Below are positions 16,669-59,157 of a DNA stretch of 64,000 nucleotides, in pieces; the stretch's first letter is position 1; each line of letters opens with the position of its first letter. A model generated the notes under the pieces. The model had not been told where the DNA came from, did not search any database, and saw only the letters and a program-made list of their open reading frames with translations. Location of the stretch: the NCBI RefSeq assembly GCF_048403405.1, contig NZ_CP183129.1. One strand, written 5' to 3'. The stretch comes from Escherichia coli. Its GTDB lineage: Bacteria > Pseudomonadota > Gammaproteobacteria > Enterobacterales > Enterobacteriaceae. Made by a program: the position numbers and the translations under genes.

Positions 16669-19265
16669 TTATTTTTTCCCTTCAACCCATTTGCCATCAA
16701 CATAAAATGCTGACCAGCCAGTCGCCTTTCCGTCTTTTTCCGAAGAGACATATTGCTGTTTGGTTTTACGGCTAAAGCGAACCATGGTCTTATTACCTTC
16801 CGGATCCTGCTGTGGCGCATCGGCCAGATAACGCAGTTTTTCCGGCAGACGGTCGCGGAAGCGATAAAGCTCTTCCACCAATGGCGCGCGTGTTTCACGC
16901 GATTTCGGGAAGGTATTGGCCGCCAGGAACACACCGGCAGCACCGTCACGCAGCACGAAATAGGCATCTGATTTTTCGCACGGCAGCTCCGGTAATGGCA
17001 CCGGATCTTCCTTCGGTGGTGCCACTTCGCCGTTACGTAAAATCTTACGTGTGTTTTTACACTCTTCGTTAGTGCAGGCCATGTATTTACCGAAACGTCC
17101 CATTTTCAGGTGCATTTCAGAGCCACATTTTTCACACTCAACGATCGGGCCGTCATAACCTTTAATGCGGAATTCGCCCTCTTCGATCTCGTAACCGTCG
17201 CAGGTTGGGTTATTACCACAGACATGCAACTTACGTTTCGGATCGATGAGATAGCTGTCCATCGCCGTGCCGCATTTCGGGCAACGACGTTTTGCGCGCA
17301 GCGCGTTGGTTTCAGCGTCTTCACCTTCCAGCACGTTCAGCACTTCGTTTTCCGGCACCAGGTTGATGGTGGTTTTGCAACGCTCTTTCGGTGGCAGAGC
17401 GTAGCCGGAACAGCCAAGGAATACCCCGGTGCTCGCTGTGCGAATACCCATTTTGCGACCACAGGTCGGGCAGTCGATGCTGGTCAGAACCATCTGGTTC
17501 GGGCGCATCCCCCCTCTTCCGGATCTTTTTCAGCTTTATCTAACTGCTGGGTGAAATCCGAGAAGAAGTGATCCAGTACAGCTTTCCACTCTGCTTCGTG
17601 ATTTGCCACCTGGTCGAGGCTGTTTTCCATCTGTGCGGTGAAGTCGTAGTTCATTAACTCACGGAAATTCTCTTCCAGGCGATCGGTGACGATTTCGCCC
17701 ATTTTTTCCGCATAGAAACGACGATTTTCTACTCGCACATAGCCACGATCCTGAATGGTCGAAATGATCGACGCATAGGTAGACGGACGACCGATACCGC
17801 GTTTTTCCAGCTCTTTAACCAGCGATGCTTCACTAAAACGGGCTGGCGGCTTGGTAAAGTGCTGGGCTGGTGTCAGTTCAACGAGCGTCAGAGCATCGCC
17901 TTTATCGACTGCCGGTAATATACGATCTTCATCGCCTTTACGCAGTGCAGGCATCACTTTTGTCCAGCCATCAAAGCGCAAAATACGACCGCGTGCTTTC
18001 AGGCGGAAATCGCCCGCACCAACGGTCAGCGTCGTGGAGTCATATTTCGCTGGGGTCATCTGGCAGGCAACGAACTGACGCCAGATTAACTGGTACAATT
18101 TTTGCGCATCTGCTTCCATATCCTTCAACGATTCCGCCATCACATTGACGTCAGAAGGACGAATCGCTTCGTGCGCTTCCTGTGAGTTTTCTTTGCTGGC
18201 GTACTGATTCGGACTTTCCGGCAGATATTTCTTACCAAAATTATCGCTGATATAACCGCGAACCATATTTACCGCGTCCTGACTCAGGTTGGTGGAGTCG
18301 GTACGCATGTAAGTGATATAGCCTGCTTCATACAAACGCTGCGCCATCATCATGGTTTTTTTCACGCCAAAACCAAGACGGGTGCTGGCAGCTTGTTGCA
18401 GCGTAGAGGTAATAAAAGGAGCGCCAGGTTTACTGGTTGTCGGTTTGTCTTCACGTTCCAGCACGCTGTAGCGCGCTTTTTCCAGCAGACTTACCGCAGC
18501 CTGTGTTTGTTCTTTGTTGACCGGGCGGAACGGTTTGTCGTTCTGATGAGTCACCTGCAACGCCAACGCATCACCAGATGGCGTGGTCGTGCTGGCATCG
18601 ACTTCCCAGAACTCTTCCGGTACGAACGCTTTAATTTCACGCTCACGCTCGACCACCAGGCGGACCGCCACCGACTGCACACGACCTGCAGACAGACCAC
18701 GAGCGATCTTTTTCCACAGCAGCGGCGAAACCATATATCCCACCACGCGGTCCATAAAGCGACGCGCCTGCTGGGCATTAACACGATCAATATTCAGCTC
18801 ACCTGGTTTGTTAAATGCCTGGCGGATCGCGTTTTTAGTAATTTCGTTAAACACCACTCGGCTATAGCGCGCATCATCACCACCAATCACTTCCCGCAGG
18901 TGCCATGCAATGGCTTCCCCTTCGCGGTCAAGGTCGGTTGCGAGATAGATGTGGTCGGCTTTTTCAGCCAGTTGTTTCAGTTCAGAGACGACCTTCTCTT
19001 TACCAGGCAACACTTCATAGTGCGCCTCCCAATTGTGCCACGGGTCAACCCCCATACGGTTGACGAGAGCGCCACGTTCATCCTTTTTAGGCTTTTTAGC
19101 CGTCTTGGTGGAGGTAGAGTCGGCACTCTTTTTGGCAGCTGAGCCACTGGTCGGCAAATCGCGGATGTGACCGACGCTGGATTTCACCACGTAGTCACTA
19201 CCCAGATACTTGTTGATCGTTTTGGCTTTTGCCGGGGACTCAACGATGACAAGAGCTTTACCCAT
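16669..19265 (-). pseudogene. topA: DNA topoisomerase I, reading frame broken by 1-nt deletion in a C6/G6 run at 17509-17514
   Basis: N-terminal 593 codons (from [20 protein letters not shown] at 19265) end at ..KDPEEGG then out of frame; C-terminal zinc-ribbon part continues in another frame from [20 protein letters not shown] (ORF 16669..17508). Confidence 0.85.
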
Positions 19266-19896: not shown

Positions 19897-19929
19897 ATAA
19901 ATATCCTCCGGCATAGCCGGAGGTTTTTC

Positions 19930-20600
19930 AAATGCGCCTATAAGGCTCTCTTACCAGCCGCGCCCTAACAGGCGCACACGATCTGACATTTGCATCCAAC
20001 TTCGTTACTTACGGCCCGTAAACGGGCTGCCCGGATAGGGAATCGATAACTGCTCTCCCATTTTATCCTCTTCAAGCTGGTGCTTTATGTAATCCTGTAT
20101 CTTCGCCGTGTTCTTACCCACCGTATCGACGTAGTACCCTCTGCACCAGAACTCCCTGTTCCTGTATTTGAATTTCAAATCACCAAACTGCTCGTAAAGC
20201 ATCAGACTGCTTTTCCCTTTCAGATATCCCATAAAGCCGGATACGCTCATTTTGGGCGGGATCTCCACAAGCATATGGATATGATCTGCACAGCATTCAG
20301 CTTCCAGAATCCGTACACTTTTCCACTCACACAGCTTTCTCAAAATACTGCCTATTGCTCTACGCTTCTCTCTGTAGAACACCTGTCTTCGGTATTTTGG
20401 CGCAAAAACTATGTGATATTTACAGTTCCATCGGGTGTGCGCTAAGCTCTTTTCGTTCCCCATTGGGACCCCCTTTTGATTTCTTGTTTGACACTTGCAG
20501 TTGCCAGACCGCAAGGTGTTTTAACAAATCAAAAGGGGTTTTAATAACTGGCTTAAAGCTGAAAGCTTTCCGGAACCCCCAGCCTAGCTGGGGGTTTTCT
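19930..20600 (-). mobile_element. IS200-family insertion sequence (IS200/IS605 family); boundaries approximate
   Basis: contains Y1 HUH transposase gene and, upstream of it, the palindrome aacccccagc-ctag-gctgggggtt (20572-20597) plus an RBS-sequestering stem-loop (20464-20530); inserted between yciN and sohB terminators. Confidence 0.7.
20005..20463 (-). CDS. tnpA: IS200 transposase TnpA (Y1 HUH)
   Basis: 152-aa product MGNEKSLAHTRWNCKYHIVFAPKYRR...HIHMLVEIPPK, near-identical to Salmonella IS200 TnpA as I recall it. Confidence 0.9.
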   Translation of the reverse strand: MGNEKSLAHTRWNCKYHIVFAPKYRRQVFYREKRRAIGSILRKLCEWKSVRILEAECCADHIHMLVEIPPKMSVSGFMGYLKGKSSLMLYEQFGDLKFKYRNREFWCRGYYVDTVGKNTAKIQDYIKHQLEEDKMGEQLSIPYPGSPFTGRK

Positions 20601-23296: not shown

Positions 23297-23308
23297 TCAT
23301 GATTATAT

Positions 23309-23617
23309 TCAAGCGGCAATAGCGAAATTCAGAATACGTGTAATCTCATTCAAATGTCCCGGATATGCTTCATGATTCTCAGCGTCAACATCTTCAATAA
23401 ATAATATCAGTTCAGTAATTAACGCATTAGCATCGTCATAATTTATCCCGGCTAACTCTGGCGAAGTTTCAGTACCATAGTTAATCGTCAGGTTGTTCAT
23501 AACTGTGAGGATATGGATAAAATATTTATGACAAACATTACATGTGGTTTTATTACCCAAAGTATTATACAGCATATCAAGTAATGCCAATATTCTACGG
23601 TTTTGCACATCGTTCAT
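23309..23617 (-). CDS. hypothetical small acidic protein (102 aa), second gene of AT-rich islet
   Basis: ORF in AT-rich DNA directly downstream of lipoprotein gene; no recognisable family. Confidence 0.5.
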   Translation of the reverse strand: MNDVQNRRILALLDMLYNTLGNKTTCNVCHKYFIHILTVMNNLTINYGTETSPELAGINYDDANALITELILFIEDVDAENHEAYPGHLNEITRILNFAIAA

Positions 23618-23627
23618 AAAAAGCCTC

Positions 23628-24629
23628 CTATAACATTATTCCGCTGGCAATAAGTAATTTTGCCAGCCCCTCAGACGCCTTTAACCCACTAATGACCTGT
23701 GCGCGTAATATTTCATTTAATCTTTTTTGTTCAGCTGCCGTGCGTGTTTTATTAACGTATAAGCTTTTTAGATAATCACCCTTATCTATAAAGGCATTTA
23801 AAGCCTCAATCGCAGGCATGGCAGGTGCCGATGCCTGTAGTCTGGTTTCATTCACATTGATTACTGAACTTAGAAACTCCTTCCTGTTTTTCAGAGTGTT
23901 AAACTCTGTATTCTTAGAGTTTTTAGATGCTGTATTATAATAAAACATATTATCATGCACATTCGCAAAGGTATAATTTTCAATCTTATTGCTTTTTGTA
24001 TAAATATCATTGCGCAAAACCGCCATGTTCTTTATAAGTCTTACCCAGTTTTCATCTGCCGTTTTGCCTATTTTTCCAGAATTGACTTTAATTATATATA
24101 ACTCATTGAAATAATTTACCAAATCTTTAACCGCTGCTGCAGATTGAGCTAAATCTTTGCTATGTGAAACACCAAGTAGTGTTTGTGCGTTGTTTGCGTG
24201 ATCCAGAGCCTGTTTAAGTAATGCCACTTGCTGACTTTCCGTAGTTGCCATATCCTTTGTCAGAAGTTCCACATAAGCGCTCATGCTATTAATGACTTCC
24301 ATTGAAGCCAGTAATTTTTCTTTCTCGAAAGGGACTAATTGTACTTGTTTTGTATTTGGCCCTGAACGCTGGCATAATTTTCCGCCATTCCCATCACCGC
24401 CTATATCAATGGTATAATCAGGTCGCAATGCACAATCCGGATTAGTCGCGTAGAAATTAACAAGGAAGTTTTCACGAGAAGCATAGTATTGTTTAAAGAA
24501 ACTTGCATTCGCCGCTACTGCTTTGTTACCCGCAGTAATAACAGTTTCAGCTTGTTCGTTTTTCAATGCTTCAGTTGCACAACCTGAAAGCATTAACAGC
24601 GATAGAAATATTCCACTATATCTAATCAT
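23628..24629 (-). CDS. hypothetical lipoprotein (333 aa), AT-rich islet
   Basis: signal peptide with lipobox LSGC (MIRYSGIFLSLLMLSGC), strong SD GAGGTGGG upstream, AT-rich codon usage. Confidence 0.7.
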   Translation of the reverse strand: MIRYSGIFLSLLMLSGCATEALKNEQAETVITAGNKAVAANASFFKQYYASRENFLVNFYATNPDCALRPDYTIDIGGDGNGGKLCQRSGPNTKQVQLVPFEKEKLLASMEVINSMSAYVELLTKDMATTESQQVALLKQALDHANNAQTLLGVSHSKDLAQSAAAVKDLVNYFNELYIIKVNSGKIGKTADENWVRLIKNMAVLRNDIYTKSNKIENYTFANVHDNMFYYNTASKNSKNTEFNTLKNRKEFLSSVINVNETRLQASAPAMPAIEALNAFIDKGDYLKSLYVNKTRTAAEQKRLNEILRAQVISGLKASEGLAKLLIASGIML

Positions 24630-24751
24630 AACCCACCTCTTGACGTTGAGTTTATCTCAGATAATTAAATAGTAATGTGGCTATTTCCGGGTATTATTCA
24701 TAAGCAAGTATGAAATTAAATTAAAATACTGCGACTATTTATCATGCTTCA

Positions 24752-25884: not shown

Positions 25885-27789
25885 TTACCAGCCACCGCCG
25901 CCTCCGCCACCTGCACCGCCACCAGCACCACCACCGGAATAGCTACGCCCCAACAAACTGGTATAGGCCCCGCAACTCAGGTGCGTCTGTAATGAGAATA
26001 AAACGCCACTACGGGCAATTTCCGGGGCGCGAACAGCCGCTGTGAGTGATGGGGTGATACGTGCTGCCCATTCTCTGCCAAGGTTTGCCGAGACCGCCCA
26101 ACCTAACAACGCGTAATCCAGTTTCCGTGTTTCCCCTTTCCGCCGCCGCCCACTGTGTGTTGCTGCCTCTTTACGCGCAAGATAGTTAACGATAGCTTCA
26201 CCGTGGACATAACGTTGCTGCCCAGTTTGGGTAAACTTTGGCAGAAAAATATACCCCAAGCCAGTGAGATAACCGGTCAGGACAACAGCGCTAAAATAAC
26301 CCGCTGGCATATACCAGTAAAAGAATACATCTCCGACATTGATATAGAGAGAATAAAAGGCCACGCCTGAACAAATCAGCGGTAAAAACAAAGTGATGAT
26401 TACACGATTAACGCAAGGCTTGTCATCATCGCGGGCAAACACAAGCTCAAGGGAACAAAATAAAAAAGGAAGAAGCCAGCAGATCATAATAAACATATCG
26501 CCCACCAGACTCATTCCTGCCCAGCCTACGGGACTCAGGTTACCGTAGAGAATGACCGCTAATATCGCCATTCCCCCCCATTGCAAAAACGCATCAGGTC
26601 GGTAAAACGAAGACTTTTTACGCGGCAGATAAAATTTCTGCATCCGTAAAAATGCCCTGCGTAAGACTCTGTTGCGTCTCCCCGTAAGAACGACCTTATC
26701 GCCTTTACGAAATAACGCTTCCAGTAATAACTGCTCTGCGGGCAGTAATACCGCATTATTTCTGGTCGCGCCTTCATTAACACGAATCAGGATTTGCTGG
26801 TTCTTATCATACTGATCTTCCAGATGAATTTTGCCTTTCACAATCAGATTTACGATATCGGCACAAAAACCTTTATCGTCGTAAACCAGCTTCGCATCGA
26901 GACGTAACATGCCGGGCGTGTAATCTGGCGGAATGACATCGGTTTCAATCACATCTACCGGCGTAAATTGCGGCCTGCGCTTCCAGAGATATAACCATCC
27001 ACAAACCAGGAATAGACACGGAAACCAAATTAACAACGATGACGTGGAGGGTAAAAGAAGATGGCTGAAAATATTCGTCGTTTGTGGAGCCGGGGCATTG
27101 CTAAGTAAAGCGTGAGGCCAGCGGTAGAGTACCGTGAAATCTTCACGATAAAACGGATCGCGGGATTCAATTCTTCCGTCCTCAAGGATGCGGCCATTTC
27201 GATATGTGTCGCCCTCTTCTCCAGTAAAGAGATCGATTTCGCTAAATGGATTACCCGCGATATCAGGGAACTTGAGTGAAAATCGGGTCTTATAGATTTC
27301 AAACGGCCAGTGGTTACCGGTCACGTTCCAGATTAACAGATCTGAATCTCCCTCACGCAGGAAAGCATTTTTAACCTGATAATGAATTTGATAATGATAG
27401 TCGCCTTGAGGCAAGAAACGTTGTTTATCGCCCACGACGATACTCATTAAACCGATATGCCAGTCAAGATGCCAGGGTTCAGGAACACCATCACGGGTGA
27501 CGCCAACAATATGATAGTTCAGCAGTGCAGCGTCCCCATCAGGCTGCATCCAGAGTCGTGGTAAATCACGATAAAATCCGTGCTTAATCTGCTGATTTCG
27601 CGCCTGAAAATGAATATTTTCTTTGATGTCGAGCCCCCCATCCGGTTGCAGAGTGGCTTCAACATCAAAGAGCGAGATCCCTTCTTCATAAAAAGGGATC
27701 TCCGTGTTTTTCGGATAACTCAACGAAGAGAAAAAAGCCCAACTATCAACAGCAAAATGCAGCGATATATCCCTGCCATAGTCTTCCAT
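25885..27789 (-). CDS. yciQ: DUF2207-family membrane protein YciQ with C-terminal poly-Gly tail
   Basis: 634-aa ORF, several TM segments, ends GGGAGGGAGGGGGGGW. Confidence 0.8.
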   Translation of the reverse strand: MEDYGRDISLHFAVDSWAFFSSLSYPKNTEIPFYEEGISLFDVEATLQPDGGLDIKENIHFQARNQQIKHGFYRDLPRLWMQPDGDAALLNYHIVGVTRDGVPEPWHLDWHIGLMSIVVGDKQRFLPQGDYHYQIHYQVKNAFLREGDSDLLIWNVTGNHWPFEIYKTRFSLKFPDIAGNPFSEIDLFTGEEGDTYRNGRILEDGRIESRDPFYREDFTVLYRWPHALLSNAPAPQTTNIFSHLLLPSTSSLLIWFPCLFLVCGWLYLWKRRPQFTPVDVIETDVIPPDYTPGMLRLDAKLVYDDKGFCADIVNLIVKGKIHLEDQYDKNQQILIRVNEGATRNNAVLLPAEQLLLEALFRKGDKVVLTGRRNRVLRRAFLRMQKFYLPRKKSSFYRPDAFLQWGGMAILAVILYGNLSPVGWAGMSLVGDMFIMICWLLPFLFCSLELVFARDDDKPCVNRVIITLFLPLICSGVAFYSLYINVGDVFFYWYMPAGYFSAVVLTGYLTGLGYIFLPKFTQTGQQRYVHGEAIVNYLARKEAATHSGRRRKGETRKLDYALLGWAVSANLGREWAARITPSLTAAVRAPEIARSGVLFSLQTHLSCGAYTSLLGRSYSGGGAGGGAGGGGGGGW

Positions 27790-57652: not shown

Positions 57653-59157
57653 TCATGGCATGGCCATGAGCATTTTCACGCCCGCATCACCGTCTTCTGA
57701 CGCCTGTGACACGCCCCCCTGGACCGCAGCCGGTGAATGGTTCGCCATGAAATGTTCAAACAGGGCGGTTGTGGATGCAGAGACCGGTTCTGCCTTACCT
57801 GATCCCGCAGCCAGCACAGCCCGGGCGCTCTCCACAGTCATTCCCGGGCAGGCAGCCAGCTGTTCAGCCTGCGCCTCAGCCCCTTTTGCCTCATCCAGTG
57901 CCATGATCTGATCACGGAGTGATGGTCCGGCATTCGCCTGCGGTGAAGCAGCCAGGATCGGGCGGGCTTTTTCCACCGTCATCTCCGGCATCGCCGCCAG
58001 CGTTGCCGCCAGTTGTTCACGACCGTTCGCTTCTTCACACGCCATAATGCGATCGGCTTCACTCTGTGCGGATGCCACCGGCTGCTGCGGTGCCGCCGCG
58101 GCCAGAATCGCCCGGGCCTGTTCAACGCTCATGCCCTGTTGCCCTGCCAGCATCGTGGCAAGCTGTTCACGTCCTTTCGCTTCCTGGCATGTCAGGATCC
58201 CCATCACTCGCTGGTTCTCCTGCACGGCGGCTTCCGTTGCAGTTAATTGCGGCATAGTGCCTCCTCTGACATTACTGTTCAGCGCCGTGGCCATCACACT
58301 GATGGCATCCGACGCATTGATTAATTCATCCGCCAGCCCGGCCTCAATGCCGGACTGACCTTCAAAAACGGCAGCCTCTGTTCCCGTGACCGCATCAACA
58401 GACAGACCGGTATACATCGCCACTTTTTCGGCAAACATCCGGCGCGCCACATCAATCCGCTGCTGCATGTCCTGGCGAACCTCTGCCGGCAACGCTTCAA
58501 ACTGATTGCCATCCACCTTGTGCGCTCCTGAGTAAATCAGCGTGATATCCACACCGGCCTGCGCCAGATGACCGGCATAGCTGACATGGCTCATCATCAC
58601 GCCAATGGAGCCGATACGGGATGTCTGGGTAACCAGCCGTCGGGAGCAGGCCGACGCCAGCAGCATGGCTGCAGAACAGGCCGTGTCATTACACAGTGCC
58701 CAGACCGGCTTCTGCTGCCGGAGGCGGTAAATCATGTCAGCGCAGTCAAACGCGCCGGCGGCCTGCCCGCCCGGACTGTCAATGTCCAGCAGTATGCCCC
58801 GCACCTGGCTATCTGCCATTGCCTGCTGAAGACAGGCGACAATGCCGTCATAGCCAGTCATTCCGGAAAATGGCCGCATCCCCCCAGCCGGTGCACCAGC
58901 GTGCCGGTCACCGGCAGTACCGCAATACCGTTCACCACCCGGTAAACACGGGCCGGTCGTTTACCTCCGGCCATGTACTCGTCCGTTTCAGCCAGCATCC
59001 CGGGAGCATCAAGCTGTACCTGCTGTTGCGGTACCGAAAGACTTGCTGCCCCCATCTCGCGCCCGAGCGCGCAAAAGAAAACCCGCGCATAGGCGGGCTC
59101 CAGAAGCAGCGGTTCATTGAATGCTGCGGCAATAATGTGTGAAAGATTACGTCTCAC
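57653..59157 (-). pseudogene. C: head protease/scaffold C-Nu3 (S49 family), frame broken by 1-nt deletion in a C6/G6 run at 58880-58885
   Basis: N-terminal ORF 58858..59157 (MRRNLSHIIAAAFNEPLLLEPAYARVFF...GIAVLPVTGTLV) ends just after the homopolymer; remainder (MRPFSGMTGYDGIV...) continues in another frame. Confidence 0.8.

Follow-up and report, generated by a model that had tools for sequence, protein, structure and literature searches.

A one-base contraction in a G7 run of Escherichia coli topA is probably a homopolymer under-count

Introduction

DNA topoisomerase I of Escherichia coli (EcTOP1), the product of topA, is a type IA enzyme that has been divided in the laboratory into two constructs. 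TOP67, the 67-kDa N-terminal core made of domains D1-D4, cleaves and rejoins DNA and does not relax supercoils, and the C-terminal domains D5-D9 (TOP30C) are essential for relaxation; D5 starts at Q591 and has few contacts with D4 (PMC4678816). E. coli without topoisomerase I cannot be cultured unless compensatory mutations are present (PMC3313902), and the usual compensators are substitutions in gyrA or gyrB and amplification of parC/parE (PMC6160223).

Two other kinds of system resemble a topA that is interrupted at a homopolymer. First, in slipped-strand (phase-variable) switches a G/C run lies inside a coding sequence, and its length toggles the reading frame. Second, there are artefacts of homopolymer under-calling, since deletion errors in long G/C runs are typical of long-read and flow-based sequencing platforms. 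Most of the errors that persist in long-read assemblies are bases falsely deleted from homopolymers (PMC12007338), and many of the pseudogenes annotated in bacteria are artefacts of assembly whose occurrence depends on platform, assembler and coverage (PMC11017572).

Here we examine topA in a stretch of E. coli DNA of 64,000 nucleotides (the window), in which the gene is read in two frames. With a probability of about 0.8, we attribute the split to an under-count of a homopolymer in sequencing or consensus building, in an organism with a normal topA, and the split gene most likely does not reflect the biology of the organism. An earlier note on this DNA, made from the sequence alone, had considered a sequencing error at least as likely as a mutation; the assembly series and the homopolymer census described below make the artefact the stronger reading.

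Results and Discussion

The topA locus and its two reading frames

The window extends from fabI to a prophage in ompW, and the genes for gyrase and topoisomerase IV lie outside it. Its topA is found in the order yciN-topA-cysB, as is the allele of strain TUM14771, and from start to stop codon it has a length that leaves a remainder of 2 on division by three (Table 1). The first ORF encodes native residues 1-586, up to KDPEEGG, followed by seven out-of-frame residues (CARTRWF), and spans domains D1-D4, the catalytic core of TOP67. The second ORF overlaps it by 25 nt, begins at native Met587 and reads through to the native stop; it spans domains D5-D9 (TOP30C), with three four-cysteine zinc ribbons followed by C-terminal zinc-ribbon-like domains. 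Between them lies a run that is exactly CCCCCC on the plus strand, with T on either side, and that on the coding strand reads GAA GAG GGG GG followed directly by ATG CGC. In the native gene the corresponding G7 run forms codons 585-586 (Gly585-Gly586) within the D4/D5 linker, and the reading frame of the window gene is lost after G586. The earlier note had given the same layout (a 593-codon core ending at KDPEEGG, a second frame from MRPNQ and the six C), and both the ORF listing and the sequence agree with it.

Table 1. Positions of the features discussed, numbered from the first letter of the window.
Feature	Position	Strand	Remarks
topA (type IA DNA topoisomerase I)	16669..19265	minus	2597 nt, against 2598 nt in the native gene; ATG at 19265-19263, stop at 16671-16669
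ORF1	17484..19265	minus	593 codons and TGA (17486-17484)
ORF2	16669..17508	minus	279 codons and stop; first residues MRPNQ
Missing-base site, C6 run (G6 on the coding strand)	17509..17514	plus-strand C	seven in relatives
Substitutions relative to TUM14771	23590 and 26442		
Third G/C 7-mer, in yciQ	26573..26579		intact control run; coding context GGGGGGGAATGG
yciQ, T7 to T6	27737		
yciF, two 1-nt deletions	36781 and 37109		compared with other lineages
Lambdoid prophage inserted in ompW	37984..64000		
Gene K (C40 peptidase), 10-bp deletion	48647		
Prophage gene C (S49 head protease), C7 to C6 contraction	58880..58885	minus	GGGGGGGATGCG context

The window carries a topA allele that is ordinary for E. 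coli, and all the family features that we tested are present except a continuous frame. The first ORF alone scores 858 bits against the NCBIfam profile TIGR01051 (topA_bact), for which the cut-off is 456.4, and the repaired protein, as in TUM14771, scores 915 bits against the same cut-off. The acidic Toprim residues and the catalytic tyrosine are all found in the first ORF (E9, D111, D113, Y319 and R321; their roles, as well as the domain boundaries, were taken from PMC4678816). Pfam Toprim and Topoisom_bac are on record for a product identical to this ORF, and Zn_ribbon_Top1, Zn_ribbon_bTOP1 and Zn_Ribbon_Topo for one identical to the second ORF, in which CxxC pairs that open zinc ribbons are located at 599/602, 662/665 and 711/714, with more cysteines downstream. 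As sequenced, the gene is one base short of joining the core and the zinc ribbons in a single polypeptide.

Native length of the run

Of 5426 RefSeq complete E. coli genomes that were searched, 5422 yielded a topA match, and none of them is identical to the window over the topA region. In the ten genomes with the closest topA region (TUM14771, GN02461, 4621, MS 69-1, OX030728, TUM1226, three ST2747 records and KE55; 99.9-100% identity), the aligned span is 2802 nt each, compared with 2801 nt in the window, which means that each of the ten has G7. For example, GAAGAGGGGGGGATG in TUM14771 corresponds to GAAGAGGGGGGATG in the window. A 90-nt probe over the site matched exactly, with G6, in 3 of 5420 RefSeq complete E. 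coli genomes, and the remaining 5417 carry G7, each having one base more than the probe. Because both the close relatives and these 5417 genomes carry the extra base, G7 is the native state and the window is one G short. Among the 5420 genomes, no native topA combines G6 with an intact frame, and the comparison with close relatives, which the earlier note had suggested, bears out its view that one nucleotide of a G/C run is missing relative to the native gene. Its expectation that one more base would restore a single ORF of 865 codons proved to be exact: when one G is added, the window gene encodes 865 amino acids and is identical in both nucleotide and protein sequence to topA of TUM14771 (WP_001309471.1). 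Compared with this allele, which is also that of GN02461, 4621 and MS 69-1, the window is identical at all nucleotides and differs only in run length, having one G fewer in the run of codons 585-586 and a frame that is broken after G586.

The missing base in the G7 run is unique to the window within its lineage. Over positions 1-37983, the window differs from TUM14771 (37,983 nt) by two substitutions and a single gap, and this gap is the one in topA. The prophage was compared with the same prophage of strain ECO_1_S (about 26 kb), from which it differs by two gaps and no substitution. In total, the window has three private indels, each interrupting a gene, and at most two private substitutions.

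The distribution of run lengths also bears on readings in which the shortened run would serve a function. A phase-variable switch was considered and rejected, as 99.9% of genomes have one and the same run length. The topA run shares with such switches its position inside a coding sequence; unlike them, it belongs to a near-essential housekeeping gene and is no contingency locus, with G7 in 5417 of 5420 genomes.

A related reading is that the deletion is real and that topA nevertheless functions, with the halves cooperating as separate chains and/or with ribosomes slipping by -1. Along the first route, a 593-aa TOP67-like core and a translationally coupled 279-aa TOP30C would be made separately, cut in the D4/D5 linker, and would act in trans. 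The window ORFs do correspond almost exactly to the 67-kDa core and the C-terminal D5-D9 of EcTOP1 (PMC4678816). The ATG of the second ORF (native Met587) stands directly after GAAGAGGGGGG, overlapping the first ORF and starting 25 nt ahead of its stop codon, and is preceded by a Shine-Dalgarno-like GAGGGGGG. Ahumada and Tse-Dinh (2002, BMC Biochem 3:13) reportedly found that the zinc domain supplied in trans to Top67 partly restored relaxation. Along the second route, a -1 shift on G_GGG_GGA, which has the form of an X_XXY_YYZ heptamer, would read the native Glu-Gly-Gly-Met, and some rounds of translation could then yield the wild-type 865-aa protein.

However, both routes presuppose a real deletion. 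TOP67 and TOP30C are laboratory constructs, and the window matches them only because the G7 run is in the linker; this run has a fixed position in all E. coli, so that a break at a domain boundary reflects the location of the run by chance and is no evidence of design. Unlike TOP67, the first ORF also carries a seven-residue out-of-frame tail. The Shine-Dalgarno-like element abuts the ATG, which is a poor spacing, and G_GGG_GGA is not known as an efficient slippery site in E. coli. As for a programmed frameshift or a split gene, the shifted state is unconserved, with 5417 of 5420 genomes in frame. We regard a functional topA with a real deletion as very improbable, and a natural two-piece topoisomerase I, translationally coupled and/or aided by -1 slippage, is an equally remote prospect. 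If G6 were real and the split functional, the locus would represent a natural two-piece type IA topoisomerase or a supercoiling set-point switched by a homopolymer, and even a real deletion as such would test in vivo, by a split in the D4/D5 linker, whether the core and the zinc-ribbon region work as separate chains.

Homopolymer census in the window

The under-count that we prefer as an explanation can be compared with the state of the other runs in the window. A total of 326 homopolymers of at least 5 nt in the reference sequences were scored for shortening. Shortening is confined to G/C 7-mers, two of the three being affected, whereas none of the nine G/C 6-mers, none of the 36 G/C 5-mers and none of the 278 A/T runs of 5-8 nt is shortened (0/22 for A/T runs of at least 7 nt). 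The second shortened run is in prophage gene C, and this contraction is the sole single-base private indel in the 64 kb besides that in topA. On the coding strand, both shortened runs lie in the 12-mer GGGGGGGATGCG, which encodes Gly-Gly-Met-Arg in topA and gene C alike, and the third G/C 7-mer, in yciQ, is intact in a context of its own (Table 1). As there are only three G/C 7-mers in the 64 kb, the argument from context rests on very few sites.

These observations suggest the following course of events. The topA of the organism would have G7 and encode an uninterrupted topoisomerase I of 865 aa, and its run would have been counted one base short; the identical miscount would have occurred in the same 12-nt context of prophage gene C. 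That the assembly of the window itself made an error of this kind is a step that we infer rather than observe. The topA contraction has the features of homopolymer under-calling in several respects. First, it is a -1 change within a long homopolymer (C7 to C6 relative to the closest relative), it falls in the longest class of G/C runs, and it hits a conserved core gene. Second, it is private to this assembly and not clade-coherent, with G7 in 10/10 closest genomes, and the same site recurs in unrelated assemblies of certain series, the three other G6 genomes belonging to an unrelated lineage. Third, the class of error is recurrent and indels are in excess (2/3 of the G/C 7-mers; three private indels against at most two substitutions), although the sample of 64 kb is small.

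The window is also very clean apart from the two 7-mers, unlike the noisy B1.H1.18 and UID assemblies described below; its errors would be in 7-mers only, with none in shorter or A/T runs. This cleanness is an observation that counts against an artefact.

Contracted topA in other public assemblies

The three genomes with an exact G6 match to the probe are B1.H1.18 and B1.H1.1, both from hospital wastewater in Poland, and UID2309220031, from blood in Thailand. Their topA haplotype is only 99.4% identical to that of the window, so they represent a different lineage. We inspected B1.H1.18 and UID2309220031, B1.H1.1 being a sibling of the former from the same series. PGAP flags topA as frameshifted in both, and within 40 kb each contains two or three further core genes that are frameshifted by 1-nt deletions: trpE (G6 to G5) and yciQ (G7 to G6) in B1.H1.18, and trpE (G6 to G5), trpB (two 1-nt deletions) and pdeR (CCC to CC) in UID2309220031. 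The other public assemblies with the topA contraction are thus members of error-laden submission series.

It was also considered whether B1.H1.18 and UID2309220031 are one real clone that carries topA-G6 together with trpE-G5. This was rejected, as 151 substitutions over 38 kb separate the two, about six of them scattered outside recombinant blocks. The one-clone reading is further contradicted by the private 1-nt deletions in each genome and by the presence of trpE-G5 with a normal topA in UID2309220041 and Ch1.

When the exact 593-aa TopA product was looked up in a large assembly collection, it was found in 106 blocks, and among the matches listed the contigs are of the B1.H1.18/UID haplotype. 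Because the TopA protein is identical in the lineages of the window and of B1.H1.18/UID, this look-up is blind to lineage. One Logan contig of the B1.H1.18/UID haplotype also shows T7 to T5 in cobO.

Two further runs were followed across genomes in the same manner. The G5 form of trpE occurs in five genomes (B1.H1.18, B1.H1.1, UID2309220031, UID2309220041 and Ch1), and phage gene C with C6 in ten scattered genomes, including UID2404240036, UID2309220026 and C25. The accessions of C25 (CP127314) and Ch1 (CP127316) adjoin, and the series that recur across topA G6, trpE G5 and phage gene C C6 are four UID23/24 strains, the B1.H1.x strains and CP127314/CP127316. Rare G-run contractions at three unrelated loci follow submission series, not clades. 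Since the same few series recur at all three loci, and in different strains, the pattern fits a technology-linked artefact and not descent. It is also in keeping with the published error profiles of bacterial assemblies (PMC12007338; PMC11017572).

If the topA contraction is an artefact, the G7 run in GGGGGGGATGCG is repeatedly miscalled and lies behind annotations of a frameshifted topA, in 3 of 5420 complete genomes. Because the contractions track submission series, the topA G7, trpE G6, yciQ G7 and phage gene C G7 runs can be used together as quick flags of unpolished E. coli assemblies.

Weighing a genuine deletion

The main competitor of an under-count is a genuine and very recent slippage mutation, and all such readings taken together are improbable. 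Within them, the one that deserves most attention, though we still consider it unlikely, is a G7 to G6 slippage in the isolate or in a laboratory stock that inactivated full-length topoisomerase I, with survival through gyrA/gyrB alleles, parC/parE amplification or residual activity. A G7 run is a true slippage hotspot, as the rate of indels grows exponentially with the length of a run (PMC8510543), and in a mismatch-repair-deficient (mutator) background two G7 contractions in 64 kb would be plausible. Quantitative per-run indel rates for mismatch-repair-deficient E. coli were sought in the literature, and only the qualitative exponential dependence was found (PMC8510543). The clean state of the remaining runs (0/9 G/C 6-mers and 0/22 A/T runs of at least 7 nt affected) is also in favor of slippage, and topA mutants with compensators are known to arise and persist (PMC3313902; PMC6160223). 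However, a mutator would gather transitions as well, and the window has at most two private substitutions against three private indels. G6 is absent from all ten closest genomes, and all other inspected public cases of G6 come from error-laden assembly series. In addition, the occurrence of a second contraction in an identical 12-mer is better explained by a context-dependent base-calling error than by independent slippage.

Selection provides another argument against a genuine deletion. Selection against loss of topA is strong (PMC3313902). Because relaxation needs the C-terminal domains and loss of topA needs compensation, a real frameshift after G586 would be strongly selected against. If it were real all the same, the occurrence of a disrupted topA in a natural isolate of E. 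coli would be noteworthy, and compensatory changes in gyrase or topoisomerase IV would be needed. As a separate observation that counts against an artefact, G7 to G6 slippage is the commonest class of genuine spontaneous frameshift.

Other frameshifted genes in the window

The earlier note had supported the possibility of sequencing error with a recurrence of the same single-base deletion in yciF, K and C. This stands for C (C7 to C6) and fails for the other two, as K has lost 10 bp and the yciF allele is clade-coherent, being shared by nine genomes. The deletion in gene K lies at neither a homopolymer nor a microhomology and is present in 0 of the 1576 genomes that carry this region, and an exact look-up of the truncated K product returned no record. 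It is unlike a typical consensus error, so that at least one private indel of the isolate may be real, which lends some weight to a genuine deletion in topA. A change that is not of the homopolymer type is, as a further observation, one that counts against an artefact.

The two 1-nt deletions in yciF are both outside long runs, and nine genomes in all, each belonging to the lineage of the window, have exactly this allele. The T7 to T6 change in yciQ, a gene that the earlier note had not named, is found in six genomes that are nested within these nine. Because both distributions are clade-coherent, the frameshifts in yciF and yciQ are probably real, inherited pseudogenes, and being inherited, they are uninformative on how error-prone the window's assembly is. 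The annotation of TUM14771 likewise flags both genes as frameshifted.

Apparent frameshifts in topA, gene C and gene K

Using the coding strand as reference, the two G7-to-G6 contractions of the window, in topA and in the prophage gene C, were found to fall within the same 12-mer, GGGGGGGATGCG, which codes for Gly-Gly-Met-Arg in both genes, and the only other G7 run of the window is intact and lies in the context GGGGGGGAATGG (see table). With three sites only, this shared sequence hints at a base-calling error specific to sequence context. Core genes with G runs shortened by one base in this way also occur repeatedly in a few submission series of RefSeq 'complete' E. coli genomes (UID23../UID24.., B1.H1.x and CP127314/CP127316; for example, B1.H1.18, NZ_CP146564, and UID2309220031, NZ_CM142673), where topA, trpE, yciQ, trpB and pdeR are affected and are labeled by PGAP as frameshifted pseudogenes.

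Gene K lacks 10 bp that are present in relatives as GAAGCACCAA, and its product is cut to 201 aa. The deletion site has neither a homopolymer nor flanking microhomology, the deletion was found in 0 of the 1576 RefSeq complete genomes carrying that region, and the 201-aa product has no exact match on record. The loss may be genuine and private to this genome, or it may be an assembly error of an unusual kind.

Features of the window
Feature	Window position	Strand	Gene or context
G7-to-G6 contraction	17509-17514		topA
G7-to-G6 contraction	58880-58885		gene C, S49 head protease
Intact G7, sole other G7	26573-26579		yciQ, GGGGGGGAATGG
T7-to-T6 frameshift	27732-27737		yciQ
Two 1-nt deletions	36781 and 37109		yciF
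10-bp deletion	48647 (gene from 49185)	minus	gene K, C40 peptidase
Lambdoid prophage	37984-64000		inserted in ompW

Probable inherited pseudogenes and lineage history

Both yciF deletions are common to exactly 9 genomes of the lineage, and the yciQ frameshift is common to 6 genomes nested within these 9. Both genes look like true pseudogenes passed on by descent, and they mark out a clade of TUM14771, GN02461, 4621, MS 69-1, TUM1226 and OX030728; for yciQ, the outgroup is ST2747.

In this lineage, sohB and yciN are separated by a copy of IS200C (about 19900-20500), and rluB and cobO by two hypothetical genes that span about 1.3 kb (about 23300-24700), positions estimated through the TUM14771 alignment. 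Both features are absent from B1.H1.18 and UID2309220031 and are annotated in TUM14771.

The prophage, beside which a 3' remnant of ompW is left, carries genes for tail fibre, J, K, L, M, tape measure, capsid, protease C, portal and terminase. It shows 0 substitutions against the ompW prophage of ECO_1_S (NZ_CP065821), despite 56 in the flanking yciE-trpA backbone, and TUM14771, the nearest relative by backbone, does not have it. Compared with ECO_1_S and B1.H1.18, substitutions are densely clustered at 35850-37270, from the 3' end of trpA to yciF. Dozens of them fall within this segment of about 1.4 kb and almost none in the adjoining prophage, a pattern which suggests that the lineage of the window has a block of recombined sequence around yciG and yciF.
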